Shown: one piece after another, positions 1 through 61,450 of the stretch
How positions within the stretch are numbered: the stretch's first letter is position 1
Layout of the letters: each line of letters starts with the position of its first letter
DNA from: Takakia lepidozioides
Lineage: Eukaryota > Plantae > Bryophyta
Assembly: GCA_030704615.1 (NCBI GenBank)
Contig: CM060733.1
Location: 10,664,001 to 10,728,000, forward strand
Length of the DNA: 64,000 nucleotides
Direction of reading: 5' to 3'
Notes under the pieces: model-generated
Database searches by the model: none
What the model saw: only the letters and a program-made list of their open reading frames with translations
What the model was told of the DNA's origin: nothing
Program-made: the position numbers and the translations under genes

Positions 1-1234
1 GATACCAATTTTGAAGAAGCATTGGGTTTTTGCACAAGTATATGGCATGATTTGATGGAAGTGTCGAGGGTGTGGGATGCAGATGAGCATAATCTGTGGA
101 ACGTGAAGTTGTGAAGGAAGTTCTAAAGCCCAAATTGAATGACTTGTGTGATATTGTACATGAGTACATCATTCAGACCATCCTCGTCTCAGTCATGTTG
201 GGGTAAGAAATCTACTTCTTGACATTCAGATTTCCAAGTTTTAGTCATTTATCAATTAGTTGGCATAGGACGTCTTTTCAAATCTCCCACTCCACCCATC
301 TTCAATCTCATGGCTGACCCTCGGATTTTGACAGATATATAATCATAGTCCACACTTATATAAATCCATACGACGCTTGTTTCGTGAGGAGCAAGGGCTG
401 GAAGGCATGAGCATCCACGGCAATTCAGTACCCTCCTGATTTGCCTCCTTGTCCTCCATTTGCTGTTTGGCTCCCTCAAGTGTACGGGATCATCTCTCAA
501 TTCAATCAGATGGGCTTGATCCCTACAACACGTGAGGAATTACTGGATCTTTCAAGGCCTCCATCATTTACTTCTACTCTTTACTGCCCTGTCATTCAAG
601 AGTTACAGCGATATGGTAACCATTACAGGGTGACATCCCCGGCATGAACACAACAAGTATGGTGTCTTTTGATTGTGTAGTCTCATTTGTTTTCCAGCAC
701 CAGCCCATTACCAACAATTCAGCAAATGACATGGAGGAACCTACAAGATATGTGGGTCTTATAAGGGAGATTTTGCAAATTGACTATGGCCAAACACAGC
801 CTATAGTGTTTTTGTGTTCGTGGGTACGGGCGAGTCGCGTGGGTCGTCAACCTATGTCAATGAAGCAGGATGATGCTGGCTTCACACTTGTCAATTTTAA
901 CCGTATGCTTCCACCTTCTGAGCAACCTTTTGTGTTTCCTGGCCAGGTTGATCAAGTGTTTTTTTCTGATTGTGTGAAGGAGCCGGGGTGGAAAGTCGTC
1001 CTGGAGAAGAGCCCCCGAGCACGTAGAGTGGTCTGCGACATATCAATTGATAATGATGATGTGGCGGAAGTGGAAGGATTGTTAGCCCCACAAAGACTAG
1101 TGGAGACTCTGGTTACTGATGGCCCAACATGCAGCGGTACCGGTTTACTCCAAGCAGTGCCTCCTTGTACCTCCGAGCACCCCGTATACGTGGTGATGAT
1201 GTTCAGCCAACCCTTGGACAGATCAAGTCTGTGA
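1..1234 (+). pseudogene. Degenerate CACTA Tnp2/TnpD transposase C-terminal region (DUF4218/DUF4216-like)
   Basis: Y-x-x-EEALGFC at 1-35. ORF 644-1234 reads YVGLIREILQIDY...VFLCSWV...DDAGFTLVNF...EQPFVFPGQVDQVFF...GWKVVL, typical of the CACTA transposase tail. Upstream part broken by frameshifts. Confidence 0.8.
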
Positions 1235-1754
1235 TGAAGACAGTGATACATGTAGTGACCCAGACATAGATGAGGATGATGAAGATTAGATATGCGCGAT
1301 TTGTGCACTCCAGTTATAGACCATGCATGATAGTTTAAGGTGGTAACACTCCCTTCGCATTCCCATTAAGATATCATGCTTGGACACTGGATTTTATGAT
1401 CAATTATGGAGTGCTTTCCTTTCAGCATCCTTTATTCATTTGTTGTTGCATTGGCTTTGGACCAACCCGTGCTGGTACCATTGCCATGGGTTCTGCCTGC
1501 AATGTTTTCTTACCATGGATTCGCACACACGCCACGAAAGGCCATCCAGACCATCCTCTGGAAATGCTCCAATGTTGTTTCAAACATCTCCACATTGCAA
1601 TGGATACAACAATGACATACGATGAGTGAAAGTGAGACTAGACCTCCAGCCAGCCGGCTTTCCCACATCAAATTGAAGGGGATCTGTAGATTATAGATAA
1701 CGGCTGTTGCCTTCTCAATGTCTTTTCCAATCACCTTCTGCAATGAACTGGGTA

Positions 1755-2620
1755 TAAGATCCTTCAAATCACAAGTTTGAGCATCACGCACAAGCCACTT
1801 ACGGGGATAGAGTTTCCAATGCGAACCATTGGTCTTTTATTGATAGCATTGTTGTAAAATACATGGCTCAACATGGTCAATTTCGGGAATGACATATAGT
1901 ACGCTTTCATGTACTATGTAAAGCATGCAACTATGTACCAGTGACGTGGCTTGTTCGCCACTTAACCTGTTTGCCCATTCAGCCATCTCCACATTGTCAT
2001 GGATTTGCATGCTGGATTGTGAGGCATCCACACCGTCCTCTGAAATGCTATCATGGGGTTTCAGCTATGTCCACATTTCCCTGGATTATGCCTGCACGAA
2101 GCAAGGCCAACTGCATTCAGCACCCTCCACTTTATTATAGTATTGCAGCAACATTCAAAGCACTTCAATTTGTATTCATCGAAAACATCTAGGCTGGAAA
2201 AAGACATTTTTGCAGCAAAACTTAGGAAAGTACTTCTCCCCTTCCACTACACACGTGAAATGAAAGAAGCCAACCAACATCATACCAACCAAGAAAATAT
2301 GAAACCAGCCAAGAAAAGAGCCAATATATGCAGTGAAGGTCGACACTAAATGAAACTTATCCAACACTTACATTAGAGGAGGGAAACTAAGTCTTACCTC
2401 CATAAGCTTGCCCACATCAAATTTGGGAGCTTTCAGATTTTTCCTTTCCGGTTGAATGAACTTGGCTACAAGATCCTTCAAATCACAAGTTGAGCTTCAC
2501 ACACAATGAACTTACAGGGATTGAGCTTCCAATGCGAACCAGAAGTCTTATATTGATAGCATTGTTGTAAAACACATGGACCAACAATGACAGTCACTGG
2601 AATGACATATAGTACAGCAT
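1755..2620. repeat. Dispersed direct duplication of about 150-170 bp inside the CACTA element (about 1755-1905 and 2468-2620)
   Basis: Both copies share AAGATCCTTCAAATCACAAGTT...TTCCAATGCGAACCA...TATTGATAGCATTGTTGTAAAA...GGAATGACATATAGTAC. Confidence 0.85.
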
Positions 2621-3860
2621 GCCGCTTCCAGTTGACCATCTACCCATGTAGGTTTCTTGTAACTATCATTCCACAGGGAATCATAGGTAATGTGGAGCTT
2701 GAAATCCAGCCCTCTTGGATGAATCTGGACCCACACTCTATCCCTGCTCCTTCAGCTATCCATGCCTCTGACAGCCTACAATTCTACAGCAAACACCCCA
2801 ACCATACTGGTGTGGAGTTCTTCCCCAAACACCCCAACCCTACTTATCACAATCTGAAATGCATCTGCTTCTCTCTGTAGTCCAACAGGCATTCGTCTTT
2901 TTGTCTCCATTGTCCCACCATTGGGGTCGGAAAGTGTTCACCCCAAAGCTTCTCCTTACCTCTATTATATGTTTTTGGATACTTCCCTGCTGCCACACTG
3001 GCAGTAACTTGCCAAAGTCACTCCAAACCACCACAGATCTACCCAACGACCTAACTTACAGAATTCAATATGCATCTTGCGGCCGAGTCTGAGGAGAGGG
3101 CAACACAGGCTGAAATAGGTTGAAGAAGAAGGTGCCCTACCACATTATCCTTGACCTGTCCTGACCCATGGAGGATTTGACCGATGACCTCTTGTGTGTG
3201 CTGCTTGTGTCTGTAGTCAGGTAATGTCGGATTGGTCTATGAGATCGAACCACTACGGCGTAGATGAGTAGTCAGAGATTGAAACACGCTTGCTAAGACC
3301 AAGCTGACTCTCCCAAGAACGGCGAGCTCGCTTCTCCTCGTCTCGTCTCCTCCTCATCTTCTCCTTCGTGCATCATTTGCTCAACGCCTCCATCCCACGC
3401 CCCTGTATATCCTGCTATCATCGCGTTCCATCCCTCAGCTATGTGGTGTGGCGCATGAGACAAAAAAACGCCAAATCCCAGCCCTCCTTTCTGTTCACGA
3501 TTACACTAATGAGCAACCTTATTTGCATTATATGTGCCTTCAAAATGACACGTGTAGTGATGTAGTCGTATAAATAGAGCTCTGAAACCATCTTCAGTCA
3601 TGGAGTCATAAGATTCCATGAAACGTCGTCCACGTGTAGTCAAACATATCACACTAGTCATATAAACCATCCCTGTCATCATGATCAACAATGTTTGACC
3701 AATGCTCCCTAACTTTCCGGAGTCATGTAGTGATATCCATTACTACAAAGTCATAAAACTAAAACTGTAATGCATTTCAGCGCTCTGTAGTCATGTACCT
3801 AGTGCAGTTTTTATGACTCCGCCAAAGCCGTAGTCCTAAAAACGCTCATCTCTTGTAGTG

Positions 3861-4178
3861 TGAGGTGGCGAACCTCACTTGGGACGTGGGGAGATTATCT
3901 CCACGTGAGACGTAGGCAGGCTCGTCTTCTTCTAGTCGAGCCTTCCGATGCCTCTCTCGCCACCATAGCTCTAGTACTTGAGATGGAGAGTGGGTGAGGT
4001 CTGTATGGTGGAGTCCTTTAACAAAGGTGCCATTGGCTTGACTTATAGAGTGGTTTCTCCTCTTTTCACCATTTTCATATCACTAGAAGAAGACCTGCTT
4101 ACATCTATGAGTGCAAGGTGTTAGCATAGTTAGCACTTGTGTGTGGAAGATAGCTTAATATATAGCTCTTAAGTTACA
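3861..4178 (+). repeat. Probable 3' part of the 5' LTR of the outer Gypsy element
   Basis: 3861-4050 aligns by eye with the reverse complement of about 60090-60292, which flanks a related RT/RH fragment. A possible LTR end GTTACA lies at 4173-4178. No clear PBS recognised. Confidence 0.5.
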
Positions 4179-4962: not shown

Positions 4963-5400
4963 CATCGGATGAACTATTGAGCCAGTGGATGACATTCGGC
5001 ACTTCTAGATGAGAATCAGCAGTGGATGAAACTGCACCAGCGGATGAAATCTCGTCAGCGGATGAACTATCACACTATCGGATGAAAAATTGTGGAGACG
5101 GATGAAACTGCGTCAGCGGATGAAATCGTGGCAGCAGATGAACGATCGTACCATTGGATGAAAAATCGCGGCGACAGATGAAACTGCGTCAGCGGATGAA
5201 ATCGTGGCAGCGGATGAACTATCGTGCCAACGGATGAAAAATCGATACAACGGATGAAACTGCGCCAGCGGATGAAATATCGCGCCAGTGGATGAAATAT
5301 CGCACCGACGGATGAACTATCGTGGCGGATGAAATATCGGACCTGCGGATGAGAAATCGCGGTTTTGGATGAAATTCAGTCAGTGACGGATGAAAAATCG
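4963..5400 (+). repeat. Tandem array of about 20 GGATGAA-core units (17-21 bp) in the retroelement 5' UTR
   Basis: Units such as AGCGGATGAAATCGTGGC, AGCGGATGAACTATCG, CGGATGAAAAATCG and GACGGATGAAACTGCGTC recur with a 4-unit higher-order period of about 76-78 bp. Confidence 0.9.
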
Positions 5401-5917: not shown

Positions 5918-7163
5918 ATGCCATTGTTGTGGGATACGATGGAGGAAATGTATGGAGCTACTAAGGGGCCACGTCGGTACTTTGGAGCTGTGGGCACCAT
6001 CGAGCTTGATGATTTCATACCGGAGTTTGATAGTTGGTGTGATTTGCAGCAGATGCGCAATCCACAACTGTTTACGCCTTTTATGGCATGGAAGGGGCTG
6101 TTTCAGTACCTTGAGGGGCTGCCTTATGGATGACTATCATGAGTTTAGGTGGGGAAATGAGGTGGAGATTGAGGAGTGACGATAATATTGGTCACCTGAC
6201 TGTGTCTCCATCACTAGAGACACAAGGGCAGCGGCGACAAAAGCAGCTACACCAACATCCCCAACTGCAAGCACTAATAGTGGGACAAGTAAAGATGGAG
6301 CTGGGAAATCCACTCAAGCTCCTGCTGCAGCACCAGCACCCATGCCTGCCTTTAACCCAGTTGTGGAGTTCTTCGAGGAGTTGAGGAGAAACTACCAGGG
6401 GATAAGGACGGAGAAATTGCGGAGCTTGCAAGAGTTCCAGCGCAAGCCTACTGAAAGTTTGAGGGAGGCTTACACGCACATGAGGCGATTGATAAATGTA
6501 ACCCAAAGGGTTACGGAAGCTCAAGTAGTCCAATTCTAGTATGGGATATTGGACAAGGAGCTGAGGAGAAGGGTGCGGGATGCAACTCTCCTACAAGTGG
6601 CCCAACTCACCTTAACAAACGTGTTTTTGCTGGCAGAGCGGATAGAGCTCAATATGGTGGAGGAGCGAGTGGTCATGGTAGGGTTTGGTAAGGAGACACA
6701 ACGAAGCGGGGCTCCTAGCCAACAACAACCACTACCCCAACGTGCTCAAGGCAACAAGAGGGCTCAGGCGAAGCCCAGGGAAGGACAGAGAAGATCTCAA
6801 TTTCAGAGGTCACTTCCTTCATTCTTAGGCCATCAACAGTCATGTGTGACATGTTGGGATTGTGGAGGACCCAATGTTAAGAAAGATTGCCCGGAGAGAG
6901 GCAAAGGGCCGGCACAGGCATAACCTACACAACTACAGTGTGGGCATTGTGGCAAGTATGGGCATGATGAGGCCCATTGTTATGACTTGCATCTTGAGCT
7001 GCGGCTAGGCCAGTTCCAAAAGAACAATGGTGGCCGAGGATGAGGCAATGTAGTCCAGAGAGGTAGAGGAGGCAGAGGTCGTGGTGGAGGTCGTAATCAA
7101 AACCACGGAGCACATGGTCAAGGTCAAGGTCATGACCAAGGCATGGTGGATAGGCTTGCCTAG
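5918..7163 (+). pseudogene. gag: gag of outer Gypsy element with two zinc knuckles (frameshifts and stops)
   Basis: ATG at 5918. Capsid-like F-Q-R-KPTESLREAYTHMRRL. Knuckles CWDCGGPNVKKDC (about 6852, degenerate) and CGHCGKYGHDEAHC (about 6939-6980). Confidence 0.75.
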
Positions 7164-7673
7164 CTAGAGCAACGTCTTGTTACCATGGCCACTACTCATG
7201 TTGCGCCAGCTCCAAGGCCTGAGGTTCAAGCCCCACCTACACAACTTCCTATGCCTAGGGAAGACCAGATTGATATGGGCTTCATGTGTGGAGCCGCACT
7301 TGTAGGACCATTGCATGTGGACTCTGCAGCTGCTGTCACTCGAGCAGTAATGCGTGCTCCTGAGCCAAGAGGAGTAGATGTGGATTCTAATCCACAAAGA
7401 GGGGAAGCAAGTCGATAGACAAGGCTTCCACAGTCTTTCACATTGGCTGAGGCGATGCCAACTACGCCATCGATGGTACCCGCTCACCCAAGTGTGTCAG
7501 AGGTAGAGCCACGAGTGCCAGTGGGGAGAGTTGGTGTGGCTCGAGAAATGCCAGTGGGTGGTGCTGCAAAGCAAGGTGCAACTAGTATATTGTTGGGGGC
7601 AGCTACGGCAATTTGTCAAGCTCCATTGTTTTCTGCCACGACAATTGCAATACCGGGGATTTGACCAGCTGCT

Positions 7674-8262
7674 GTGTTCAGACTAGCAGCTAGACTCTGT
7701 GAGAGTGGTGATGCATCGGCATTATTTGCGGGGATAGCGGATAATGTGCAGTGTATGGATGCCCTGGACTCAAGGGTGAAGACAGCCACAGCTGCATCAT
7801 GGCAAGCGGCAGCTGTAAGGTTGCAGGAGTTGTCAGCTAGATCAGCCATTGAGCGTAGTATGGTGACTCCTGGGGTAGTCCTGGTGAACAATCAGGATGG
7901 TGTGTTTCAGTTAGGTGGCCCAGCCAGGAGGAGGTATAGGCCACTATGGGCCGTGTTGGACTCGGGAGCACAGCCATTGATGTTGGGGAGAGCAGCAATT
8001 GCAGGCTTGGGCCTTACAAAGGCGGATTTGGAACCTTGCTCTTTCCAAATTCAAACATCTTTGGGTGGTTCAGAGAAGGCGCAAGGGATTACACGCCATG
8101 AGCTCTTCATTCGATTGCAGCCAGATCATCATACAGACGGCTCAGTCATGAGAGCTAAAGCCATTATTACGGACGCGATGTCCTATGATGTGCTTGTTGG
8201 TGGGGCGGTGTTATACCTCATGGGACTCACTCTGGACTTTTGGGAGGAAACGACATCCTACA
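7674..8262 (+). pseudogene. Retropepsin aspartic protease domain of outer element
   Basis: AVLDSGAQPLMLG (D-S-G-A active site) and downstream YDVLVGG motif. Frameshift near 8260 leads into the MTase-containing frame. Confidence 0.8.
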
Positions 8263-9893
8263 AGGGGAATGGCAGTCAGGAGATGGCCGATGTGCACTGC
8301 TTCCAGTGCGGTTTATTGGGAATGTAGCGGTGGATAATAAGAACATGATGCCCACATTGGCTGCATTTTCAGGGGTTTGGGGTGGTGAGCTCTTGGAGGG
8401 CAATAGCCATGCAGATGATAGGCCATCACCTCATGAGGACAAACAATTGGCATACAAGGTTGATTTGCTTCCTCATGTGCCTGTGCATATTCCATTGTGG
8501 GATACGGTTGGGAATTTGCACCGAGTAGCAGGCGAGTGTGTGCACCAAGCATGGCAGGAGGCCTTTCCATTGATGAGTAAGGGGAGTTCAATGACATCAC
8601 CTGGACCTCCTGAGTTAGCTCCTTTGGACACGGTGCCCATTACCTGGCAACCACCTGATCCAGGGATTTGTTTGCTAGACCTGTTTGGAGGCATGAGCAC
8701 TGGGCTTGTAGGAGTGTTGCAAGTTGGGATTAAAGTACGCAAGTACTTGTATGTGGAGAAGGATGAGATAGCTCGGCGTATTTCTATGCGTCACATCGCC
8801 TTGTTCACACACCGGTATCCTGAGTTGTTGCCTCTCTTAGCAATTCAAGGGTATCAAAAGGCATTGCCAGCAGATATTACCTTGCTGGGGGCGGATGATT
8901 TGGACTGGCATGGTGCCATTGACTTGGTGATAGCCGGATGGCCTTGTCAAGGACATTCTCCCGCAGGTCATGGGAATGGCATGCATGATGCACGATCGCA
9001 TTTGTTTTGGGAGATGTTGCGAGTGTTGCGGGACTTACAGACGAGGCAAGTGCAACCTCTAGGCTATATCTTGGAGAATGTTCCTCTTATGGGGGATTCT
9101 CGGGCCAGGGTTATGGCCAGTGTGCATCAGGTGCGGTCTTGGATTGGATCGGCGGTGCTATTGGATGCAACAACGGTGGGATCACGCGCGCATCGACCTC
9201 GATTGTGGTGGACCAATCTTGCACCACCAGAGCTGCTCAAGAGAGCATACGATTCCATTCAATGGCCACCCAATCTCACGGTTGAGGGCATTTTGGACCA
9301 AAGGAGACAACCACAGAGGGTGCGACATGATGACCATTCACCTCTAGCAGTGGTCAATCGAGTGGGACAGCCACATGCGGCCTTGCCTACGCTCATGAGC
9401 TTTCCATCGTCTCATGCTTTTCGAGACAATGGTCCTGGATTGATTTGGGATAGTGTGCTAATTGGTGGAGCCCAATGCGGATGAGCAAGAGCGGGCAATG
9501 GGTTTTACCACGGGCACTATAGATGTACCAGCTCTGTCAGAGGTATCACGTCGCCAAATGTTGGGTCAAGCAATGGATCTAAATTGCTTGACATGGATAA
9601 TTGGCTTGTGCATGGCTGAGCAATGGAGATTGCAAGCATTAGTGGCTACTATTGCACTCCCATTGGATAGTGCATCCTCCCTGCCAACCGGGACGGTTGA
9701 GGCAGTGAGTGGGGGCGAGCACAGGATCGTGGGTTGCAAACACCCATGGCAGATGTGGGATGAGATGCGCAAAGAGAGAGTCATTGGATCTCTCAAGCAG
9801 CAGTATAATGAGTGGGGAGAGTCATGGACTGATGATCAGTTGAAGGCTAAGGTGACCAAGGTTTTTGAAGAGGTTGAGAATGTTTCTTGCTGA
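8240..9893 (+). pseudogene. DNMT3-like C5 cytosine DNA methyltransferase domain embedded in the retroelement pol polyprotein (core 8666-9600; one frameshift near 9460)
   Basis: Motif I LLDLFGGMSTG (8666+), II YLYVEKD, III DI, IV DLVIAGWPCQ (catalytic Cys 8945-8947), VI YILENV (Glu 9074), VIII AHRPRLWWTNL, IX EQERAMGF, X RRQMLGQAM. Canonical unpermuted order as in DNMT3, unlike DRM. Confidence 0.92.
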
Positions 9894-10052
9894 GAGGATG
9901 TTCTCAAGGTGGCTATGGCGGAGCAAGTGGAGACTACGCCACAGTCAAATTGGGCGGACAAGGCCCAAGAGGTTGATATCTAGCAACCAAAGGATTCGTC
10001 TCCTACCTCCAAGCATGGTGTACCCAAGGTTGCAGTCACTGAGGACAATTGG

Positions 10053-10754
10053 TGTCGCGGCCCTTTGCCTTGAGGGCAGGGGGTCGGGACACATGAGGGG
10101 CTGCCCCTGTGGTGGGGGTAGCGGCAGTGATAGGTATGGGGGGCTGAAGCACCCTTGAAGGCGCTCACTAGGTGGAGCCCCGCACACCGGGTTGCGGTGG
10201 GGGTGGCTCCACAAAGGGTGGTGGTAGCTTAGCGGGACTTAGTGGGGGTGGCATAGGACTCACCATGGGGGCGGAGACCTCGTGGTGGGAGTCGTGGGGA
10301 GTCTTGGGACTCATCACGGTCCATAGGGGCCGTGGTGAGTGGGCCAAGACTCACCGCGACTCATCACCGGGAGTCGAGGGTTTTCGTGGTGGTTCGCCAT
10401 AAAATGGCATGGCTGGTTGTGAAACCCCCGCGGACAGCTACAGAAGTATATATAGGGAGTAGTAACCCCGAGAACGGTGCAAGCCCGTTGGTGACCAAAA
10501 ACTAGTGAGTAAGCGAGCGAGCCGGAAAGCGACCAAAGAGTGGGGAGCTGTTCCGGACTGCCAACTACCAAAGGGAATTCCCGCTGGTTCCAAATCGGTG
10601 GAGGGTTCTTTGGGAGAACAAAGGGGGACCGTTATGCCCCGGTGAGCAGCCGAAGCTCCAAGTTGGCCCGGCGGCCAGGTTGGGAGTCAGGCGCGCGCAT
10701 CAAAGCGAGTAACTATGACTTGAGGGGGAGCTTACCGAAGTGAGGTGCGTGACA
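10053..10754 (+). repeat. 5' LTR of nested chromovirus (702 bp)
   Basis: Starts TGTCGCGG and ends GTGACA. About 10 substitutions and one 25-bp deletion relative to the 3' LTR (counted by eye). TATATA box near 10448. Confidence 0.96.
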
Positions 10755-10756
10755 CT

Positions 10757-10768
10757 TGGTATCAGAGC
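10757..10768 (+). promoter_or_regulatory. Primer-binding site complementary to initiator tRNA-Met
   Basis: TGGTATCAGAGC 2 nt after the LTR end. Confidence 0.95.
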
Positions 10769-10809
10769 TTAGAGTTCAGTACGCGATCGTCCTTGGGATT
10801 GGCCTCATC

Positions 10810-13800
10810 ATGGGGTCGGGCAAGCCGAAGCGAAAGCGGAACGGCCCAAAAGATGATGATCCTGGTGAGCCCGATGGGGGCGACGTGTCACCGAGGCGGC
10901 CGTTTGAGGAAGCGATGCATGTTTCCGAAAACGAGGCCGCTCAAGAGCGGGAGGAATCCGAGGAGTCGGAGCCCGAGGAATCCTTGAGAGCTCCGACAAA
11001 CCAAGAGATGCCTCCCATGCCGGCAGCCTTTTGGGAAGGGTTGTTGGCGCAGTTTGGCGGGACGTTGAAAGACGTGTTGAAGGCGGCTAATGTCACTTCC
11101 ACTAAGGCAAAGTTTAAGGTGAAGTCTAAGGAACCTGGCACCTTCAAGGGCGTCCGAAATCGGAAGGCACTCACCACCTGGCTCCTGGAGCTAGAGCAGT
11201 ACTTCCGGGCGGCCAAATTGAGTGACGAGGATCGGGTGGAAGTGGCTCCCACCTATTTGAGGGGCTATGCTCAACAATGGTGGTAGAAACGCTGGTAGAA
11301 ACGCCTTCACGACCGAGGTCCAAGCCCGGAAACCTTGAACTGGAGTGGGTTCAAGGAATTGATGAAGAGACAGTTTGTGCCCCTCAACGCGTCCTGGCTT
11401 GCCCGGGACAAGATGAGGAATTTGAAGCAAACAGATGACATTCGGGGGTATGTCCAGGCTTTCAATGTGCTGTTGCTCGAAGTCGCGGACATGGCAGAAC
11501 CAGAAATGGTCTTCAACTTTGTGGCGGGACTGGACCCATGGGCCAGGCGGAAGTTGGAGGAGAAGCCACCCAAGACTTTGAACGAGGCAATTGAGAGGGC
11601 TGAATGTTTCTCGGATGTCCCTAGGGGTGAGAGACAAGGCTGAACCGGAAAAGAAGTGGGATAGGCCACGCGGCGACAATGGCACGTGGAAATCGAAGGG
11701 AGGGCCTTCACACGTCAAGGCGGCACCCGGTGCTTCGAAAGGAAAAGCGGGTGGAGCGGCTTATGGCGGACAGAAGGCGACCTTTGATGGAGTGTGTTTC
11801 AATTGCGGGGAGCCCGGGCACATGGCCAAGAAGTGCACGAAACCTCGACAATTGAACATGACTCGGGCAACCACGGAGCTGTCGAAAGATACCATCAGTC
11901 GCTTGGTGGAAGCGGTGGTCGCCAGGACTTGCAAGGTAGGCAACTATTTTTGTGAGTTGTATCAGGAAACTGACGCCCTGCGTAAAGGGAGTCAGTTATT
12001 GTTCGTGGATGGGATAATATCTGGAACTAACGTGTCGTTGTTGGTGGACACAGGAGCGTCGCACTCCTTCATGACGCCGGCGGCGGCGCGAAAGTTGGGA
12101 CTCCCGACAAGTGACGTGGGGGCCTCTATTGAGGTGCGTTCTGCCAAAGGAAACCACAGTTGGCGACAAGGTTGGCGTTTGATGTTCCTCTTCAACTGGG
12201 GAGTTGGGAGGGACGTGAGAACTTCACCATCTACGAGATCGATGGAGTGGATCTCATTTTGGGGATGACCTTTTTGAGCAAATCCGGAGCGGTCATAGAT
12301 GGCCGCAAGAGAGTAGTCACGCTGCCATGTGGGAATGGTGGCGAGGTCTTACGAGTGTCGGAAACGCCCAAATCCGTGGGAGGGCGAATAAACCTTCTGT
12401 CAGCAAGGGAGTGGGCCGTGGAGGAGGCACACGAGCCCCCGTTTTTGCTTTACATTAGAGAAGTGAAGGGAGAAGGCGATGGGGAGCCGAGCCCAGATTG
12501 GATCAAGGGGATTTTGGAGAAATACCAGGATGTGATGCCGGAGGATTTACCAAGCGGCTTGCCACCGCAAGAGGAGTTGACCACAAGATTGAGGTGATAC
12601 CGGGATCGAACCGCCTGCCAAGGCACCCTACCGGTTGAGCCACAGGGAGTTGGTCGAGCTGAAGACTCAGCTCAAGGATCTAATGTCAAAGGGATGCATC
12701 CGGCCGAGTAAGTCACCTTACGGAGCCCCGGTGCTATTCGCAGAAAAGAAGGATGGGACGCTGCGGATGTGTGTCGATTACAGGGCTTTGAATAAGGTGA
12801 CTATTAAAAACCGGTACCATTTGCCAAGGATTGACGACCTCTTCGACCGGTTGGCAGGAGCGAAGTATTTCAGCCGGATCGACTTGCGCTCCGGCTATCA
12901 TCAAATTCGGGTGGCGGAAGGAGATGAGGAGAAGACCAGGACAAGGTATGGTTCATATGAGTTCTTGGTGATGCCTTTTGGGCTCACCAATGCACCTGTG
13001 ACCTTTAGCACGCTGATGAACAGCCTTTTTCAGGAGTGGTTGGATGACTTTGTGATCGTGTACATCGACGACATCTTGGTGTACTCGAAAACAAAGGAGG
13101 AGCACCTGGAGCACCTCAAAAGGGTGTTCCAAAAGTTGCGGGAAGGGAAGCTGTACGCCAAAGCTTCAAAGTGCGAATTCGGGGTCACGAAATTGGAGTT
13201 CTTGGGGCATGTGATTACACATGATGGGATCAAAATGGATGACAGAAATGTGAGGACGATCTTGGACTGGGAGCCTCCGACTTCGGTCCCGGGAGTGCGA
13301 TCCTTCCTAGGACTCGCCTCCTATTACCGGAAGTATGTGAGAAATTTCGCCAAGATCGCGGGGCCGCTGTCGGACCTTCTGTGTAAATCCAAAGTCTGGG
13401 TATGGAACACATTTTGTGGCCAAGCTTTTGTTGAATTGAAGCAGCGGATGGCGGAAGCTCCAGTCTTGAAAATCCCGGAGTTCGATCGTCCATTTGAGAT
13501 TCATACAGATGCGTCGGACTTCGCGATTGGGGGTGTACTTATGCAAGATGGACGTCCAGTGGCTTACGAAAGTAAGAAACTGAATGAAGTGGAGCGACAG
13601 TGGCCGACGCACGAAAAAGAGATGAAGGCGGTGGTGCATTGCCTTGAGCTTTGGCGCCACTATGTTGGTTCCAACCCAGTGAAGGTGTTCACGGACAATG
13701 TCACAGTGAAGTATTTTGCCACGCAGCCCAAGTTGTCCCCAAAACAACTTAGGTGGCAAGATACTTTGACGGTGTTCGACGTGGATATCCAGTACAAACC

Positions 13801-15318
13801 GGGATGGGACAATGTGGTGGCCGATGCTTTAAGTAGAAAGTAGCAGCTCCTGTTGGTGTACAGGGGCGAGACGGCGCTCCAAAGAAGGCTTGCCGGAAGG
13901 ATGAGCTGGCGAAGTCCGTGATGCAAGACTTGAGGATGGGGGTTAAATCGCAGTTCCACTTGCAAAATGGACTGCTCCGGTATAAGCAAAAGCGCCTCTA
14001 CATGCTGAAGGGAGGGATCAGAGATAGTCTCTTGAGAGAATGCCATGATGGCCCGCTTGCGGGCCACGGCGGAGCCAAGCGCATCGCGGCACTCTTGAAG
14101 AAAGAGTATTTCTGGCCCAAACTCAGGGAGGAGGCAGAGGAGTATGTCAAGACATGCACGACATGCCAACAAAACCGGAGCGAGTACAAAAAGCAAGCGG
14201 GGCTATTACAGCCCTTGCCGATTCCAGAGGGGACTTGGGAAAGCGTCTCGATGGATTTCATGACTGCTATGCCGCTGTCAAAAGGATTCGATGCAATCAT
14301 GGTGGTGGTGGATAGGTTCAGTAAAATGGGCCATTTCATCCCCACCAAGGAGACGGCAACGGCGCAGGAGACAGGACGACTTTACTTCGCCAACGTCTTA
14401 AAGCATCATGGAGTCCCGAAGGATATTGTCTCGGACCGCGATCCAAAGTTTACGAGTAAATTTTGGAGGACACTTTGGAAGAAGATGGGGACGAGGCTGA
14501 AGATGAGCACCGCCTTCCGACCTACGACCGACGGCCAAACGGAAAGAGTGAATTCCGTAGTGAAGCAGATCTTGCGGAATTACGTGTCGGCAGACCAATC
14601 AGACTGGGTGGAACACTTAGACGCGGTAGAGTTCTGTTATAATAACACATAACACTCCGCAACGGGAGTTTCCCCTTTCGTATTGGTCTATGGAAAAGCA
14701 CCTCTGGTGCCGACAAGTTGGGCCACCCAGGACGTTGAGGAACCGGCAGTAGCGGCGGTACTGGAAGAACGCGAGCGTTTGTTGAAGCTCGCAAAGTACA
14801 ACATTGCCAAAGCTAGGAAACGGTATGAAAGGCAGGCGAATTGGAAGCGGAGGGAAGTGAAGTTTGAGGCAGGCACGGAGGTCTGGTCGAACATCAAGAA
14901 TTTCCGACTACCTCCGGAAGTGAGTCCAAAATTCGTACCTCCGTATGCGGGACCATTTCGCATCCGGAAGGTTATGAATGAGGATGTGTATGAATTGGAG
15001 CTGCCGGCAAACAGCAAGGTGCACCCAGTATTCCACGTTTCCCTTTTGAAGCCTTACTTCAAAGATGAAGCGCGTCCGAATCGGCATCAAGTGTTGCGTC
15101 CGCCACCTGTGCTGTTGGATCATGAAAATGAACCTGAGTACGAGGTGGAGGCAGTACTTAAGTCGAGGAGGTTCAAGAACCGAGAAACGGAGTATCTCGT
15201 CAAATGGAAGGGCTATCATCATGTGGAGGCATCTTGGGTGCGTGCCTCAGAAATGGGAAACGCATCCGAGGCGGTTGCAGTTTTCGAAGGGCGACCTCAA
15301 AAGCGGAAGAAGCGTTGA
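10810..15318 (+). pseudogene. gag-pol of nested chromovirus with C-terminal chromodomain (several stops and frameshifts)
   Basis: CFNCGEPGHMAKKC knuckle, LVDTGASHSF protease, [19 protein letters not shown] RNase H, HHCC and DDE integrase, GPF, chromodomain EYEVEAVLKSRR...YLVKWKGY...SW, basic tail KRKKR. Confidence 0.93.
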
Positions 15319-16223
15319 TGGGGACATCAACCTTGGAGCGTGGGGGAGGAAATGCATGCTTAGCCCGGTTTAGCTAGCTCAGGAATCCGATTGCAAAAAC
15401 TTGTATTGTACAAAAAAATTTGTTATAAAAGAAATGGGTTCCAAATGTTGTGTGTCCTATTTTGTTTGGAATGGTGATGCATGGTGTGGTTGGCTAGTGT
15501 GTAGAATGCATGCTAGCTTACAAAAGTGGGAGAGGTAAATTGGGTTAATCGTGTGTTTGCGCAGTGCCGAAATCGGGTGACTCCCATCCAAGGGGCAAGG
15601 AAACATGCGCCTTCTTTGGGAGTTCACGTGCTAGTGCGCACCTGGCGCGTGCGCGTACTATAACTGTGCTACCGAGGTGGTTGCCTTGTAGTGCGGGCTA
15701 ACACGGAAACTATGTGCTTCCGTTCACGTACTATAATCGTGTAGCCTCGGGACGAAGTCGTAGTGCGGCTTCGACGTGTTCCCGTACCTCAGGCCAGCAT
15801 TCCAAGACGGACCCAATTGTAGTGATTGGGGCGCACAGTTGGTTCAAGGTTATCTTCCTAGTCAAAGGGGGTTCGAGGTGAACCCTTGCGCAAAGTGATG
15901 CCAAAAGCGGCATCAGGAGCGATCGCAAGCAATGTTGTTGCAGTAAGGCGATTCGATCCTCGGGGAGGATCGTTCCTTGACCTTGAAGAAGGCCAAGAAG
16001 AGTGCACTGGGAGGAGCTTGAGAGGCTCCACCCTTGGCCGGGACTTGGAGGAAGTCAGCCGAACTAGCTAGTGGAGAGTAGAGTCAAGTATGGGGTTTGG
16101 TTCTTTGCCATGGGACGCCGTACGGAAACAAACTCCTTGATGTGGGACGCCACAACTTGGATGTTCGTTTCTACAAAATGGACAAGTCGATGAGGACATC
16201 GACTCCCTGTTGGTAGGGGTGTG

Positions 16224-16950
16224 TGTCGCGGCCCTTTGCCTTGAGGGCAGGGGGTCGGGACACATGAGGGGCTGCCCCTGTGGTGGGGGCAGCGGCAGCG
16301 ATAGGTATGGGGGGCTGAAGCACCCTTGAGTGCCCAAGGCACTCAGGGAAGCGGAGGCGCTCACTAGGTGGAGCCCCGCACACCGGGTTGCGGTGGGGGT
16401 GGCTCCACAAGGGGTGGTGGTAGCTTAGCGGGACTTAGTGGGGGTGGCATAGGACTCACCATGGGGGCGGAGACCTCGTGGTGGGAGTCGTGGGGAGTCT
16501 TGGGACTCATCACGGTCCATAGGGGCCGTGGTGAGTGGGCCAAGACTCACCGCGACTCATCACCGGGAGTCGAGGGTTTTCGTGGTGGTTTGCCATAAAA
16601 TGGCATGGATGGTTGTGAAACCCCCGCGGACAGCTACATAAGTATATATAGGGAGTAGTAACCCCGAGAACGGTGCAAGCCCGTTGGTGACCAAAAACTA
16701 GTGAGTAAGTGAGCGAGCCGGAAAGCGACCAAAGAGTGGGGAGCTGTTCCGGACTGCCAACTACCAAAGGGAATTCCCGCTGGTTCCAAATCGGTGGAGG
16801 GTTCTTTGGGAGAACAAAGGGGGACCGTTATGCCCCGGTGAGCAGCCGAAGCTCCAAGTTGGCCCGGCGGCCAGGTTGGGAGTCAGGCGCCCGCATCAAA
16901 GCGAGTAACTATGACTTGAGGGGGAGCTTACCGAAGTGAGGTGCGCAACA
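16224..16950 (+). repeat. 3' LTR of nested chromovirus (727 bp)
   Basis: Direct repeat of 10053-10754. Preceded by G-rich PPT-like TGGTAGGGGTGTG (16211-16223). Confidence 0.96.
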
Positions 16951-16955
16951 ATTGG

Positions 16956-19865
16956 GAACCAGATGTTGGACCTACAGTCACCGGAGGAGAGAGACGGATG
17001 ATCCAGCGATTTCTAAGGGCTTATAGAAATTGCTTTGCCTTCAGTTTGAAGGATTTGGGGAGTTTGAAGGGTCAGGAGATTCGTATTGATTTGGCAAATG
17101 ACATGTCAATCTTTCGAAGGCCCTACCGGTATAGTGACATGGAAAGGTCATTGATCCAGTCACGGACTATGGAGTTGTTCGAAGCTGGATTGGTGGAGTT
17201 GTCAGGCAGGGAGTATGCCTCGGCAACGGTGATGCCAGCTAAGAAGGATATCTATGGCAATTGCACAGAAAGAAGGATGTGTGGAGACTATTGTCCTGTG
17301 AACCATCAGACTAAGTCCGATAGATATGCCATGCCAACTCCAGAGGAGATCTTTGATGCTATTGGGCATGCAAAGGTGTTTAGCACATTGGACTTGCGAT
17401 CCGGTTACCACCAGTTGCCAATCAAAGAGGCTGACAAGCAAAAGACGACATTCTGGGGGATTGACCAACATGGGAAGGATTGTTTGTACCAATGGCGGTT
17501 CTTACCGTTTGGGTTGAAGAATGCTCTTGCAGAGTTTCAGAGGGTCATGGATAGGATTCTCGCGGGGCTAGACCTCGCGCCGGTGCTACATTGATGACAT
17601 CATCGTCTTTAGTGCTACGGTTGAGGAGCATGAGAGATACCTTCAGGTGGTGTTTGAGCGCTTGAGAGCGCACGGGTTGAAACTGCACCCCGGAAAGTGC
17701 AAGTTCTTCCACAATCAGATTGAGTATTTGGGCCACATGATAAACCCTGGAGGATTGGGTGTTCAACAGACAAAGGTGGAGGCCATTGCATGCATTCCAC
17801 GCCCCATGGATGTGAGCAGAGTTCGTGCTTTCATGGGATTGGCAAACTACTATCGACGGTGAGGAGCAGGAGGAAGCCTTTGAGGAATTCAAGGCTCGAT
17901 TGACTTCTGCGCCTATTCTGAGGCGGCCTATTTGGGGGCAGCCTTTCCAGCTACATACGGATTGGAGTATGCTGGGGATTGGAGCAGTGCTCACACAAGT
18001 GGATGATGAGGGAAGAGAGTTCATAGTGGCATATGCTAGCTGCTCGAACAATGATGCCGATGCGAAGTATAGTTTCTATGAAGGGGAGTGTCTAGCTGCG
18101 GTATGGGCAGTGATACATTTTAGATGCTACCTCTATGACAATCTCTTCACCCTTGTCACAGATCACCAATCATTGAAGTGGTTGATGGAGTGAGACAAGC
18201 TTATAGGGAAGCTTGCACGGTGGGCACTTATGCTTCAAGAGTACGACTTCTAGATGGTGCATCGAGCCGGTATTGTCAATCGGGATGCAGATGGATTGAG
18301 TCATAATCCATGCATGAGCAAGCATGATGATACTGGAGCTCGGTGGCATGGTGAGACAAATGAGGAGATGGTGCCAGGATGACATGCATCGGCCTTTTTG
18401 TGCATTCCAGCAATTGGAGCTCAAGCTGGTTCATCCCATGCGATTGGTCATGTAGATAGCGTGCATGACGATCCAGAGACTAGTGAGGAGTTTGGTGGTG
18501 CTAAGGATGTGGATGCACTAGTGTTGGCATACCTTCGTACCGGAGAGACAACAGCCAGTGTGACTGCTAAGGAGAGAGATCGGGTCCTACAACGAGCCAA
18601 GAGGTTCAAGTGGGAGGGGACTCACCTACTCCGGGTATGGGAGGATGGACGAGTGAGGATTGTGCCTCATCCAACACAACGAGCGCGATTGGTACTCCAT
18701 GCCCATGAGGAGTTATGACATTTTGGGGTGCGACGCACTCATAGTTTACTGCAAGGGCAGTATTGGTGGCGGGGCATGCACACGGATGTGCAACAGTTAG
18801 TGTCAAGGTGCATGGTGTGTGATAGAGTGCGGGCTTCTTTCAATACCCCTACTCCACAATTGCATCATTTACCCACTATGGGTTTGGGCTATCATTGGAG
18901 TCTTGACTTCGCAGGCTCATTGCCATTGACGATTCGCCATAACAAGTATGTGCTGGTGATGGTGGAACACTTCTCCAAATGGATTGAACTGGTAGAATTG
19001 CTTGACAAGGCAAGTGAAGAGGCCGCGTATGCATTCTAAGCTCGAGTGCTTAGCCATTTTGGTGCTCTAGCCGAGGTACTCACGGACCAGGGGAGAGAGT
19101 TCTTGGGGGAGTTTCAGGTTTTGTGTAAGCAAGCCTTGATAGATCACCGCACTACTTCTCGGGATCATCCCGAGGCTGATGGCTTAGCGGAGAGAGTTGT
19201 TCAGACAGTCAAGAGAGGTTTGTGCAAGTACGGTTTGCAGAAGGGACACCTAGGAGATTGGGACCTTCAGCTGCCTTGGCTAGCTATGGGCTATAGGTTC
19301 AGCAAACAAGCTTCACTTGCCTCATTCTCACCTTACTTTCTTCTCTTCGGCCAAGAGCCGGATTTATCTGCATCTATTTGTAGGGAGGCTGCAATAGTTC
19401 TCAACCTTGATGATCCGGATGTGTGGACACAAGCATGTGCCCAGCGGGCAGAGTTGTTCAAGAGAGTCATGCCTATGGCTTTTGAGAACCTTGCTATTGC
19501 CCAACACCGAGACACATTGAGGTACGCCATTATACGTGGAGGGGGATATCGGCCAAGTGTTCGGCGTTTCCACCCTGGGGACTATGTGTATCTGCAGCAG
19601 ACAGCGCCTACGACCTTGGATGTCACAACAGGACGTGTGATTCTAAGGGTCAGGGAGATGTTGCCTTCAGGAATGTTGATTTTGGAGGGTCGAGACGGCA
19701 TGGTATGGAAGGACCATGTGCGCAATTGTGCGCCATGTCACCTTCCACATGTGGATGGAAGGATAGATCCCAACCTTGTAGTGGTACTTGCAGGGTTGCG
19801 TTGCATGTTCTGTGGGCATGCTGGTGGTGCCGCAACCATGTTGGTGAGTGACAAATGCTCAAGCA
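16956..19865 (+). pseudogene. pol: RT-RNase H-integrase-PHD portion of outer element pol
   Basis: [28 protein letters not shown] (about 17587). RNase H LHTDWS...YEGECLAAVWAV...VTDHQSLKWL. Integrase H-x3-H...C-x2-C, LDFAG, TDQGREF, ADGLAER. Terminal CMFC-x7-MLVSDKC, cut off at about 19862. Confidence 0.92.
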
Positions 19866-20650
19866 AAATTGGATAAAGCTAGGTTTTGATTTGGTCAAAC
19901 CAATTTCTTTCTCACTTCTTTTTTGGGACCTGATATTTGAGGTCCGGGCCAATGCTATAGTCTCACAATTTCCACGGTGGACTTGGCTCATTTTTTGTTA
20001 TGTCATGCATAAATGAGCTGGGTCCATTGCTATAAGGCTGGAATCTCTGGATGATTTTTGGTAGGTTTCTAGGGGCAATTTACTGCAGCTGGGTACCCAA
20101 AATTGGTAAAGTGTCAAAAAAGGGCTTGGGAACTTGAGGGTTAATAAGGTAGAACGTGCATTCAAAAGCAGACTATATTTGAATTGGCCATTTGATCTAT
20201 TGAAATTGACCATTTCGAACCCCAAACCTAAACATACATTCGGTGGTATCGCAAAGTAGAGCTGTTACAGGCCTTCTTCGTACTGGTCGAGCATTGAATG
20301 CTATGGATCAGGCTGATACCCGACTGGTAGGGTAGCTTGATACCTGAACAAATGTCCGGGTTCAAACCTGGGGTTGGACCCAATACCAGACCAGTAACTT
20401 GCTCTTTGCCCTTGTCCATACGCTCTCCTACAATGCACATACATATATACCGACACTCGCTTCGTAATCTCTGATACATAATTCATATACTTACATCCAA
20501 CACAAACCGAACTGAACTGACGTACTCCTTCGCTTCTATTTAGAGTAGGTATTAGTGGCCGGCACTCCGAAATCAGGCCCAAATGAATCACCCCGAACTT
20601 CAGAGTGGTTTCGAAGGTGCACACTTTGTGAGTCACTCCTTCCATGGGAG

Positions 20651-21167
20651 CGCAAAAGTATCACATCTTTCTCCAAGGGGCAATGCAGGTTTGCATGCAC
20701 GTCTCGGAATGCGTTTTCTCGTACGCAAAAGTATCACATCCTTTCTCCAAGGGGCAATGCAGGTTTGCATGCATGTGTCGGAGTGCGTTTTCTCGTACGC
20801 AAAAGTATCACATCCTTTCTCCAAGGGGCAATGCAGGTTTGCATGCACGTCTAGGAATGCGTTTTCTCGTACGCAATAGTATCACATCCTTTCTCCAAGG
20901 GGCAATGCAGGTTTGCATGCACGTCTAGGAATGCGTTTTCTCGTACGCAAAAGTATCACATCCTTTCTCCAAGTGGCAATGCAGGTTTGCATGCATGTGT
21001 CGGAGTGCGTTTTCTCGTACGCAAAAGTATCACATCCTTTCTCCAAGGGGCAATGCAGGTTTGCATGCATGTGTCGGAATGCGTTTTCTCGTACGCAAAA
21101 GTATCACATCCTTCCTCCAAGGGGCAATGCAGGTTTGCATGCATGTCTCGGAATGCGTTTTCTTGTA
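20651..21167. repeat. 74-bp tandem satellite, 7 copies
   Basis: Unit CGCAAAAGTATCACATCCTTTCTCCAAGGGGCAATGCAGGTTTGCATGCA(C/T)GT(C/G)TCGGA(A/G)TGCGTTTTCTCGTA starts at 20651, 20724, 20798, 20872, 20946, 21020 and 21094. No unique spacers. Confidence 0.97.
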
Positions 21168-22379
21168 GGGGGACGCCACCTCACCCAAGTCTGTTGATGC
21201 TTTAAGCTTTTCCTCTGAGGGGATGCATCCTCACCTGAGGCACTTTAGACACAGCGGCCCAAATCACTTTGGGCGCTCTTTGCAGGTACTTGTTAAAATA
21301 ATGTGGCAAACTTTAAACTTCTGGCCGCTCCACAAAGTTAGAGCTGTGTTTGTTGTGCATGTAAAGTTAGCTGTCTCTCTCTCTCTCCAAGGGCTATGTT
21401 CCCCGCATGACTGTGTTAATGACGTAGCGGATGTTGGGTCAAATCCATTACACGAACTACGAAGATGAACTGTAGGCAAGATGTATGTACAATCATGTAT
21501 GGGCAGGTATAATTTGTTGCGTGATTGTTGAACATTTATCTCCCCTGAATCAGTTTTTTCACCCAGTTTGCCATCCCATTCCTCAACCCACTACCTCCAT
21601 GAACATGCTTTGTCACCCCAAAGTATTGAAGTTCAGAAGATTCACGATTCATGAATATGCTCCCAGTCTTTCAATTCCCAGCCGCGCACTCTGCTCAACT
21701 GACTCTCAAAACAAAGTGAGATAGACTTGTAAATTGCGGGTCTCATATTGATTGAAATGCAGAGGCTTCACCCGTATTCTGCAGCGCATGCGCCAGCAGA
21801 CTCTTGTATTAAGAAGAGATGCCAAACCTGGTCTCCGTGTTGAGCTCATCCTCTCCGACACATGACGGTGCACTGCAAGCTGCTGGCCACAGACCCTTAC
21901 GGAAGCGTTGATTATCAGCGCTCTTTGGTGAGGCAGCACGCCGGGTGCCGGCAGGGGCTTGGCTGCGGCTTGGCTGCTCCCGCCCTTCAAGACTCTTTTT
22001 TTAAAATAAATAAATAAATAAATAATTTTAATTTTAATGTTTCCAATAAAACCAGAAGCAGGCCAGTTTCCTTTATAGAATGAAAATAAAAAATAAAAAA
22101 TAGAAACAAGCCTCAAACAGCAATTGGCTCTCTTGCTTTGCTTTGGCACAACATAAGAGGAAGGTAAGACTAGGGATCATGACTCAGCACAACACACCAA
22201 TCAGCGCCTTGACACGGTGTAAGGTACTTTGACCACATTTTCTCCGTTGACTTGCATGTCTCCGCAAAGTCTCTCTCTACAAGACAGCCAACAAAAACCA
22301 GGGGGGAGTCAGGAGGACAAATTTGAGGAGATTGCGGAGCAGTTCTCGGAACCACAGGGCAGGACACCCCCCATGTTAA

Positions 22380-44500: not shown

Positions 44501-44601
44501 TGGGCAGTGCCACAACACTGCAATCAGACAATCATTGGGCCTTGTGGCTGCAACACATTAGGAATGAGCAACTTTGGTATGATGAAGATGTTTTACATTA
44601 G
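35597..44601 (+). CDS. Upf1-like superfamily-1 helicase (IGHMBP2/Hcs1/Upf1 family) lacking the Upf1 CH domain, 15 exons
   Basis: Exons 35597-35833, 36355-36470, 36994-37066, 37593-37678, 38536-39159, 39588-39666, 40396-40616, 40952-41045, 41392-41505, 41714-41790, 42609-42704, 43000-43111, 43377-43457, 43631-43738, 44389-44601. Motifs [72 protein letters not shown]. Confidence 0.92.
43785..44285 (+). mobile_element. Cluster of at least four 5'-truncated LINE 3' ends in helicase intron 14
   Basis: Repeated 3' terminus (GGGGTCTATGGCCACAAGGCTAC)...AACAA(C/T)(G/A)T..(T/C)ATGAGTACAT ending near 43820, 43883, 44127 and 44282. Internal piece 43900-44085 matches the LINE copies at about 46650 and 50200. 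Confidence 0.8.
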
Positions 44602-59954: not shown

Positions 59955-61450
59955 TGTCGTGCACCTAAGCATCGTGCCACAACATACATCGCTGTCCACC
60001 ACACAATTTAAGCACACAATCCTAGAAAGTTATATCACAATAGTGATAAGGAAAGTGAACATAATGGAATCCCACCACTCATGAACCACTCAATTACATA
60101 AACTAAGTTAAACCAAGGGCGCCCTTGCTAAGGGAATCCACCCAACAAAGCCCTCACCACACTCCCTCTCAATACCTAGAGCTATGGAGGTGAGAGAGGC
60201 TCATGGAGGCTCAACTACAAGAAGATGAGCCTCCTCCATCCTCACAAGGGGAAAACCTATCCCCATGTCCCAAGTGAGGCTCAACACCTCACTTGGCATG
60301 TGAGACCAAATGAAGTCCCATCCTGGCACCATCTCCTCTTCGTCTCACCATGCCAACGAGCTCCTGTATCATCAAGCTCACTTGTGCATGGATTGCGACT
60401 CAATCCATCCGCATCCCGGTTGACTATTCCGGCTCGATGCACTACCTAGAAGTCGTACTCTTGAAGCAGAAGTGCCCACCGTGCAAGCTTCTCTATCAGC
60501 TTGTCTGACTCCATCAACCATTTCAATGGTTGGTGATCCGTGACAAGGGTGAAGAGATTGCCATAGAGGTAGCATCTAAAATGTGCCACTGCCCATACTA
60601 CAGCTAGACAATCCCCTTCATAATATCTATATTTCGCCTCAGCGTCATTGTTCGAGCGGCTAGCATATGCCACTACGAACTCTCTTCCCTCATCATCCAC
60701 CTGTGTGAGCACTGCTCCAATCCCCAGCATACTCCAATCCGTATGTAGCTGGAAAGGCCGCCCCCGAATAGAGTGCCTCAAAATAGGTGCAGCAGTCAAT
60801 CGAGCCTTGAGTTCCTCAAAGGCTTCCTCCCGCTCCTCCTCCCACTGCCACTTATGACCCACCTTGGTCAACTTGGTAAGAGCCTTCGCAATGCTGCTAA
60901 ATCCCTTAACAAACCGACAATAGTAGTTTGCCGACCCCATGAAAGCACGAACTCTGCTTACATCTATGGGGCGTGGAATGCGTGCAATGGCCTCCACCTT
61001 TGTCTGTTGAACACCCAATCCTCCAGGGTATATCATATGACCCAGATACTCAATCTTATCATGGAAGAACTTGCATTTTCCAGGGTGCAGTTTCAATCCA
61101 TGCGCCCTTAAGCGCTCAAACACCACCTGAAGTTATCTCTCATGCTCCTCAACCGTGACATTAAAGATGATGATGTCAACAATGTAGCACCGGACGAAGT
61201 CTAGCCCTGCAAGAATCTTATCCATGACCCTCTGAACTCCCCTACATGGGAACTCCCTTAAGTCCCACATAGCTCTCATCCAATCCCTGGGCATGACCCT
61301 CGATCTCATCCATACTAGTACCCTGTAGTGCACTCATCCCCTCTGTGTGGGCCATGTTCTTCATGAGGGATTATCAACCATGCTCCTTGGCGTAGTTGTA
61401 CTCTACTTGAGATGGCTTTCTCTTGAACGCGTGTTGCTACACATGCCACA
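59955..61450 (-). mobile_element. Deleted relative of the outer Gypsy family: LTR-like part, RT/RNase H fragment, LTR-like part
   Basis: 61240-60325 is highly similar to 17533-18380 (ORF 60446-61126, VFERLRAHGLKLHPGKCKFF...LHTDWSMLGIG...). 60292-60090 matches 3861-4050. No TSD found. Confidence 0.8.

Follow-up and report, generated by a model that had tools for sequence, protein, structure and literature searches.

A 64,000-nucleotide stretch of the genome of the bryophyte Takakia lepidozioides (assembly GCA_030704615.1, contig CM060733.1, positions 10,664,001 to 10,728,000 of the forward strand; hereafter the window) contains a dead copy of a multi-copy Ty3/Gypsy retrotransposon that encodes its own DNMT3-like cytosine-5 methyltransferase (MTase). 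Herein, we propose that gag, the aspartic protease (PR) and the MTase form a first open reading frame (ORF1) ending at a leaky stop of the form TAG-CAR-YYA, that reverse transcriptase (RT), RNase H (RH), integrase (INT) and a PHD finger would be made by readthrough of this stop, and that newly made DNA of the element itself would be the likely substrate of the MTase; as a whole, this reading has in our judgement a probability of about 0.6. The role of retroelement DNMTs was left open by de Mendoza et al. (PMC5890265), in whose available sections the Gypsy type was seen in one alga only, and the question becomes testable in Marchantia polymorpha, a model plant that carries copies and for which genetics and methylomes are available. 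Moreover, an enzyme as plentiful as Gag is predicted from the conserved stop, which speaks for action on the DNA of the element itself, and the structure of the ends predicts that a circle is the form that integrates. Elements with split repeats of this kind would be missed by finders of paired long terminal repeats (LTRs) and can lead to overcounting of DNMT3 genes when bryophyte genomes are annotated.

The methyltransferase domain and its family

All parts of the element lie on the plus strand, and three-frame translation together with Pfam searches gave the order gag, PR, MTase, a nested chromovirus, RT, RH, INT and half of a PHD finger, that is, the Ty3/Gypsy order gag-PR-RT-RH-INT with a DDE integrase and an additional MTase. 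The gag gene with its zinc-knuckle region (5939..7070, ATG at 5939) is frameshifted and carries stops, and was aligned by tblastn with the Marchantia protein P0001 from Met1; the Retrotrans_gag match (PF03732, 6186-6536, E 0.0004) is weak and under the cut-off, as is Asp_protease_2 at 7665-8324, within which PR (7830..8264) shows LDSGA at 7956-7970. The MTase (8657..9620) matches DNA_methylase (PF00145, E 1.3e-12, within 8189-9481). RVT_1, RT_RNaseH and integrase domains were found by Pfam from 16920 onward, with RT and RH at 16956..18340 and the integrase (D, D and E present) plus the first half of the PHD finger at 18512..19866, where the 3' end is lost. An earlier note on this DNA had given the order PR-DNMT-RT-RH-INT, which is confirmed except that a PHD finger, truncated near 19866, forms the end of the integrase, and had begun the element at 5918, whereas it starts near 3861. 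The copy is non-functional, as the note had also held: the frame is broken near 8264 between PR and MTase (where an indel separates the window from other host contigs), near 9460 between motifs VIII and IX of the MTase and near 17580 in RT, about 74 nt are lost near 17860, and stops are numerous. The first two frameshifts were missing from the note, which had described only point stops between MTase and RT.

The MTase motifs are unpermuted from I to X, as in DNMT3-type enzymes (I LDLFGG; IV GWPCQ, Cys at 8945-47; VI ILENV, Glu at 9074-76; VIII RAHRPRLWW; IX EQERAMGF; X RRQMLGQAM), and the catalytic Cys, Glu and Arg reported from the letters alone are indeed present. The domain is intronless within the Gypsy polyprotein. 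When its natural homologue P0007 was compared with the PDB, 29/29 sequence matches were DNMT3A, B or C, and all 35 fold matches listed for the predicted model (pLDDT 80.5) were DNMT3A, B or C entries (best E 4e-17); the MTase is thus DNMT3-like by sequence and by modelled fold. More than one donor is conceivable, because in the Atlas comparison two phage methyltransferase clusters (0.96) scored close to the first-ranked streptophyte cluster (0.97). A close prokaryotic donor was not seen in IMG/VR, where a single query returned nothing and an alignment returned 55 loci with distant phage-type methyltransferases only (best E 2e-12), nor in a search of genome contigs with the MTase, which matched two contigs of retroelements and, weakly, two of prokaryotes.

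The linker after the MTase is interrupted by a younger, foreign chromovirus (10053..16950, plus strand) flanked by the target duplication ATTGG (10048-52 and 16951-55). It has a Chromo domain (PF00385) and is young, its LTRs differing at 10/702 aligned sites; the letters 3' of its 5' LTR resemble what we take to be a tRNA-Met primer site. The reading frames on its two sides agree, and host contigs skip 10044-16948 in 4/4 public runs (7, 13, 2 and 1 contigs; at most 3 samples), joining linker to RT, so that the excision proposed in the earlier note holds. LTR starts related to this chromovirus also interrupt the metagenome locus L001 twice. The CpG ratio was 0.47 in the outer element and 0.87 in the chromovirus; this depletion was rejected as a sign of self-methylation, the host MYB exon being equally low (0.52) and the copies differing in age. 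C-to-T decay at CHG was observed at 4/66 sites between the window copies and 39/99 between L001 and L006, with high CG decay in both, and the respective hosts may differ in CHG methylation.

Among 3144 candidates, 37 longer relatives of the MTase were found, the closest to the window domain being those of Marchantia polymorpha (P0001, 69% identity), Calypogeia fissa (66%) and Sphagnum troendelagicum (55%), with PR upstream of the MTase and RT downstream where present. PR before or RT after the MTase was likewise found in 11 metagenome loci (about 7 distinct) wherever the contig reaches, those of L009-L011 stopping short of RT. Several Marchantia models that fuse MTase and RT (P0005, P0010, P0011 and P0015) were disregarded as evidence that the frame is continuous, since the linker is skipped in what looks like predictor splicing. 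Two further eukaryote-type retroelement contigs, L067 (1-9285) and L068 (1-13480), lie in cyanobacterial genome bins and are likely contamination; by its content, L067 is probably a plant or algal retroelement. The frames of both contain PR, rve and PHD domains and no tyrosine recombinase by Pfam, the PHD finger (PF00628) is complete in L067, and L068 has an extra 713-aa frame downstream of pol with no Pfam match.

With P0007 as query, 230 clusters (50% identity) were obtained at E 1e-30 or better. The best 150 comprised 18 of type A, in which the MTase follows PR or precedes RT, 68 of type B, in which it lies between RH and INT, and 64 too short to call; RT-only proteins among the relatives may be second frames of either type. 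Among 20 that were looked up, Closterium (2) and Klebsormidium nitens GAQ93235.1 (P0247) were named members of type A and Scenedesmus sp. PABB004 of type B. The large type B sister group, ordered RT-RH-MTase-INT-PHD (P0030-P0037, P0195-P0317 and L068), includes this one named Scenedesmus, and no description of it was found in our literature searches. In a FastTree tree of 107 domains picked by similarity and rooted on 8 prokaryote or phage enzymes, type A (31 PR-MTase-RT domains including P0247, support 0.94) and type B (76, support 0.89) formed separate clades, and the window domain grouped with Marchantia and Calypogeia (0.99). The MTase therefore either moved once within pol or was acquired in two separate captures.

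MTase and RT distances were correlated among 48 elements with both domains, two near-duplicate pairs included (rho 0.54, 0/999 permutations; type B alone 0.35, 1/999), and 9/16 well-supported MTase splits were found again in the RT tree. This co-divergence and the shared order indicate that the domain has long been carried along with the element. Of the trees proposed in the earlier note, the MTase tree places the window domain in one clade with that of K. nitens; in the RT tree, for which the nested chromovirus served as root, the PR-MTase-RT group was not resolved (support 0.2). Judging from these sequences, the window element is a land-plant branch of the KnitGypsy-Dnmt3 lineage of K. nitens, and P0247 is presumably one of the KnitGypsy-Dnmt3 copies of PMC5890265. 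The novelty suggested for a land-plant family stands in that no land-plant description was found; it is not, however, a family separate from that of K. nitens.

Between hosts the domain appears constrained, MTase dN/dS of the window against the loci being 0.10-0.15 in 5/7 pairs (2 saturated, dS near saturation overall), which is below the Ka/Ks of 0.2 used for KnitGypsy-Dnmt3; the corresponding values were 0.06-0.16 for RT and 0.28-0.54 for the PR-MTase linker. Three considerations weigh against the overall reading. First, when three dead loci belonging to one family were compared, the MTase value was 0.72 (0.54-0.97), as against 0.71 for the gag core, 0.69 for PR, 0.47 for RT, 0.38 for RH and 0.51 for INT, so that the MTase seems less constrained than RT to INT. 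Much of the divergence among these three is post-insertion decay. Second, every locus was found with the MTase as bait, so that MTase-less sisters, of which no search turned up any, could escape. Third, host DNMT3 was absent from the 107-domain tree, which leaves out 11 redundant or gapped entries and all short or unclassified ones.

Terminal repeats and the route to integration

The element had been described as an ordinary two-LTR retrotransposon. No paired LTRs were found around it in the window, where its 3' end is lost, and comparison of copies gave split repeats in the layout A-coding-B-A-B instead. The left remnant, A1 (3861..4085, upstream of gag), has lost its start to what we take to be a CACTA-type transposon end at 3851-3860. 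It is about 80% alike to A2, with the same end letters, in a second, internally deleted copy of the family on the minus strand (59955..61236; 90% alike to the first copy), which consists of RT-RH (61236-60319), A2 (60320-60041) and the short segment B2 (60040-59955) ending in GACA. An early reading in which repeat A begins at 60320 was dropped, this position being the deletion break of the second copy. In both distinct loci with two ends, L004 and L006, a 4-bp target duplication encloses an element whose 5' end differs from its 3' end; they begin with TGTCA and end with purine tract-B-(G/A)ACA, in keeping with the TG...CA termini and short duplications of Ty3/Gypsy elements. In host contigs (4 runs, 2 samples), depth drops more than 300-fold past 59955 into mixed flanks (43, 17, 29, 32 and 4 loose ends, agreement 0.4-0.64), and at 60041 the contigs fork into a purine tract upstream of B and a 5' leader downstream of A. 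The letters GACAGCTGTC follow the purine tract in L067 and in the type B element L068 and stand beside the break in the host loose ends at 59955. The junction is a CA-GC-TG palindrome whose halves are the element ends. The layout was assembled from A1 of the first copy, A2-B2 of the second and the purine tract-B1 and B-A joints of host contigs, L001 and L067, rather than read from one full-length copy.

In place of a tRNA-type primer-binding site, which was not seen in any of the five elements examined, all 5 have a perfect complement of 10-13 nt between a site inside A and the end of A1 (equalled in 0, 0, 0, 4 and 0 of 100 shuffles; for L004 the script gave another, longer partner). In the window, the predicted self-primer at 3924..3936 pairs over 13 nt with the predicted binding site at 4082..4094, the longest inverted match in the region (0/100 shuffles equal it). 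Rfam and ARAGORN gave no matches; the helix was recovered by RNAalifold with compensatory changes on both sides, and it resembles those of the self-priming elements Tf1 and Tcn1. An RNA starting at the 13-mer would prime itself and the plus strand would start at the purine tract, which would leave B-gc-A at both cDNA ends; such self-primed reverse transcription, with a B-A repeat at each end, is probable. The ends might then be joined into a circle in which integrase cuts the palindrome after CA on each strand, giving A-coding-B-A-B with processed ends, and to this step we assign roughly an even chance.

The strongest competitor, with a chance somewhat below even, is that A-coding-B-A-B results from template switches during reverse transcription and that linear DNA is integrated as usual, without a circle. 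To our knowledge, all characterised Ty3/Gypsy elements integrate linear DNA, and we know of none that requires a circle for integration. Two further points tell against the circle: the B-A joint of L001 lacks the palindrome, and copies of the form A-coding-B, which would arise from a one-repeat circle, could equally be explained by B-B recombination or assembly collapse. Integration of linear DNA leaves less well explained that both element ends are halves of one internal palindrome and that the A2-B2 joint is exact, running from a primer-defined end to a tract-defined start, as the joint of an end-to-end circle would. Moreover, foamy virus integrase cleaves a palindromic LTR-LTR junction (PMC1180852).

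The conserved stop codon and the role of the enzyme

Two point stops, at 9891 and 9980, had been reported between MTase and RT. The TGA at 9891..9893 is likely ordinary decay, since the linkers of five loci and of L067 have no second stop; the other is a TAG at 9981-83, in the context TAG CAA CCA (9981..9989), and is probably programmed. At the same site, 18-24 codons upstream of the conserved Trp that opens RT, L003, L006 and L010 have TAG CAA CCC and L001 and L004 have TAA CAA CCC, so that 5/6 distinct loci carry a stop and none a CAG or CAA sense codon. By comparison, CAG codons elsewhere in the loci have become stops in 15/70 copies and CAA codons in 21/112 (about 20%), and at least 3 stops occur at only 6/876 codon positions. 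In L067 all domains lie in one frame whose sole internal stop is TAG CAA TCA, and the first Met after it is residue 117 of the second frame, inside RT. The tobacco mosaic virus (TMV) readthrough signal is UAG followed by CAR-YYA (PMC2754532, PMC2194720); with the downstream frame in phase, the window and L067 match it fully and the loci in 5/6 letters. Many relatives terminate 94-116 residues beyond motif X, and a start just before RT is common among RT-INT-PHD proteins, which are then about 1040 residues long. Taken together, these comparisons make it likely that the stop at 9981 is read through to yield RT-RNase H-integrase-PHD. Gag-PR-MTase would then be ORF1, because the stop is conserved with a readthrough context, and the MTase, placed inside pol by the earlier note, would be made at the level of Gag, with RT to INT at a fraction of it.

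As the earlier note supposed, the protease may release the MTase and the particle may package it. Present there in quantity, the enzyme would have the cDNA or the circle as its simplest target, and we consider it slightly better than an even bet that a new copy is inserted already marked. The domain may instead be kept for another job, such as methylation of host DNA or the insertion site, binding of DNA or RNA in the particle, or protection or marking of the palindromic junction, which we regard as unlikely. Gag-level dosage would suit a structural or bulk binding role, E replaces P in motif IV of 52/107 domains, CpG depletion is no more than mild in the unbroken frame of L067 (0.77), and the K. 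nitens domain was inactive in yeast, failing to methylate its DNA in an assay that its authors deem inconclusive (PMC5890265). Nevertheless, the motif IV Cys and motif VI Glu are kept in 107/107 retroelement domains, and Cys, Glu and both motif VIII Arg in 104-107 of 107; catalysis is therefore probably under selection. A protein packaged together with Gag would also be expected to meet the cDNA first.

Readthrough itself has to be weighed against splicing, reinitiation, a second transcript or convergent decay at this site, which together appear improbable. Several findings count for them and against a programmed stop: the loci carry CAA CCC, one letter off the consensus; five of them have an ATG 7 nt 3' of the stop, where reinitiation is possible; L005 has a sense codon at the site; one of the control codon positions is stopped in 5/7 copies; and a similar-looking stop in Tca2 gave no readthrough in a reporter (PMC2194720). 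An RNA fold considered 3' of the stop was weak and inconsistent (z -2.5, -2.4, -0.8 and +0.7). In addition, the distant relatives P0027, P0162 and L068 read continuously without a stop, which makes the stop a feature of one branch. Against these explanations, the window and L067 lack the nearby ATG, TAG-CAA-YC recurs in three lineages with unalignable linkers and, where measured, nearly saturated synonymous sites, and CAR-YYA is rare, occurring at 35/7024 element positions. Finally, the view that one copy alone once picked up a fragment of a host DNMT3 gene has virtually no chance, given the same order in Marchantia, Calypogeia, Sphagnum, Closterium and K. nitens and the distance correlation described above, which bear out the lasting family domain that the earlier note had inferred.

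Combining these elements, we tentatively advance a broader proposal that is more doubtful than its individual steps: a Ty3/Gypsy lineage passed down through the green plants, from chlorophytes and streptophyte algae to mosses and liverworts, would have abandoned integration of linear DNA and would prime itself, circularise and open its palindrome by a DDE integrase, and its land-plant branch would load MTase at the Gag level through a leaky stop, methylating the circle before insertion.

Neighbouring features and known systems

The sequence to the left of the element (1-3860), bounded by the CACTA-type end, is multi-copy in host contigs. In place of the element's 3' end stands an unrelated multi-copy piece (19867-20141) that stops at GGG-TTAA, an end that we take to recall piggyBac. 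Tandem arrays occur in the 5' leader (76 nt, 5025-5336) and at 20593-21258 (74 nt, 7 copies). The last exon of an R2R3-MYB gene lies at 32305-33714, the best named full-length match of 32329-33711 being from Ceratodon purpureus (38% identity), and superfamily-1 helicase exons (AAA_11) at 38522-43951 and 43787-50487 stand beside short direct and inverted repeats. Coding-like stretches at 61300-64000 gave no Pfam match and probably belong to another transposon truncating the second copy.

The literature searched contained no account of the family from land plants or from chlorophytes, and none of the stop or of the junction; bryophyte members may be present in figures, preprint supplements, subscription journals and Repbase. 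The word "Marchantia" was not found in the text of PMC5890265 or in three supplements, and the consulted parts of PMC12344493 and bioRxiv 10.64898/2026.05.21.726589 say "streptophytes" and point to earlier work. Phygy and Selgy (Neumann et al. 2019, PMC6317226) are also non-chromovirus Gypsy elements of mosses and club mosses, a likeness by description only. That survey demanded paired LTRs at 95% similarity, so that split-repeat elements were likely overlooked, and its available text mentions neither a methyltransferase nor a PHD finger. Self-priming, predicted here, is described for Tcn1 in the same source.

The nearest known system is KnitGypsy-Dnmt3 of K. nitens (PMC5890265), which shares an intronless DNMT3-type domain in a Gypsy polyprotein and, according to the legend of Fig. 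4, DIRS-like A-coding-B-A-B repeats like those of the window family; GAQ93235.1, ordered gag-zinc knuckle-PR-MTase, shares a clade with the window domain (0.94). The host differs, that of the window being a land plant, and in the available part of PMC5890265 the capture is treated as specific to the K. nitens lineage, without a conserved stop, palindromic junction, self-priming or RH-MTase-INT sister group. DIRS elements have a tyrosine recombinase, whereas the window family has a DDE integrase with a PHD finger and is not a DIRS element. SymbioDIRS-Dnmt3, whose domains methylate CG in yeast, and SymbioLINE-Dnmt (PMC5890265) are likewise retroelements with their own C5 methyltransferase, but of other retroelement classes or DNMT clades, as are the EpiLTRs of Euglena and Cymbomonas-type algae (bioRxiv 10.64898/2026.05.21.726589). 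Foamy virus integrase, acting on 2-LTR circle junctions (PMC1180852), offers a parallel for a palindromic junction of att ends as a possible substrate; unlike that case, the window family would carry the palindrome within the element itself and would have to pass through the circle. In TMV, murine leukaemia virus (MuLV), SIRE1 and Tca2, two products are made in a ratio governed by a single in-frame stop (PMC2754532, PMC2194720), and the six-base context in the window family is that of TMV. Unlike in these systems, the stop of the window family follows gag-PR-MTase, which would put a chromatin enzyme on the abundant side.

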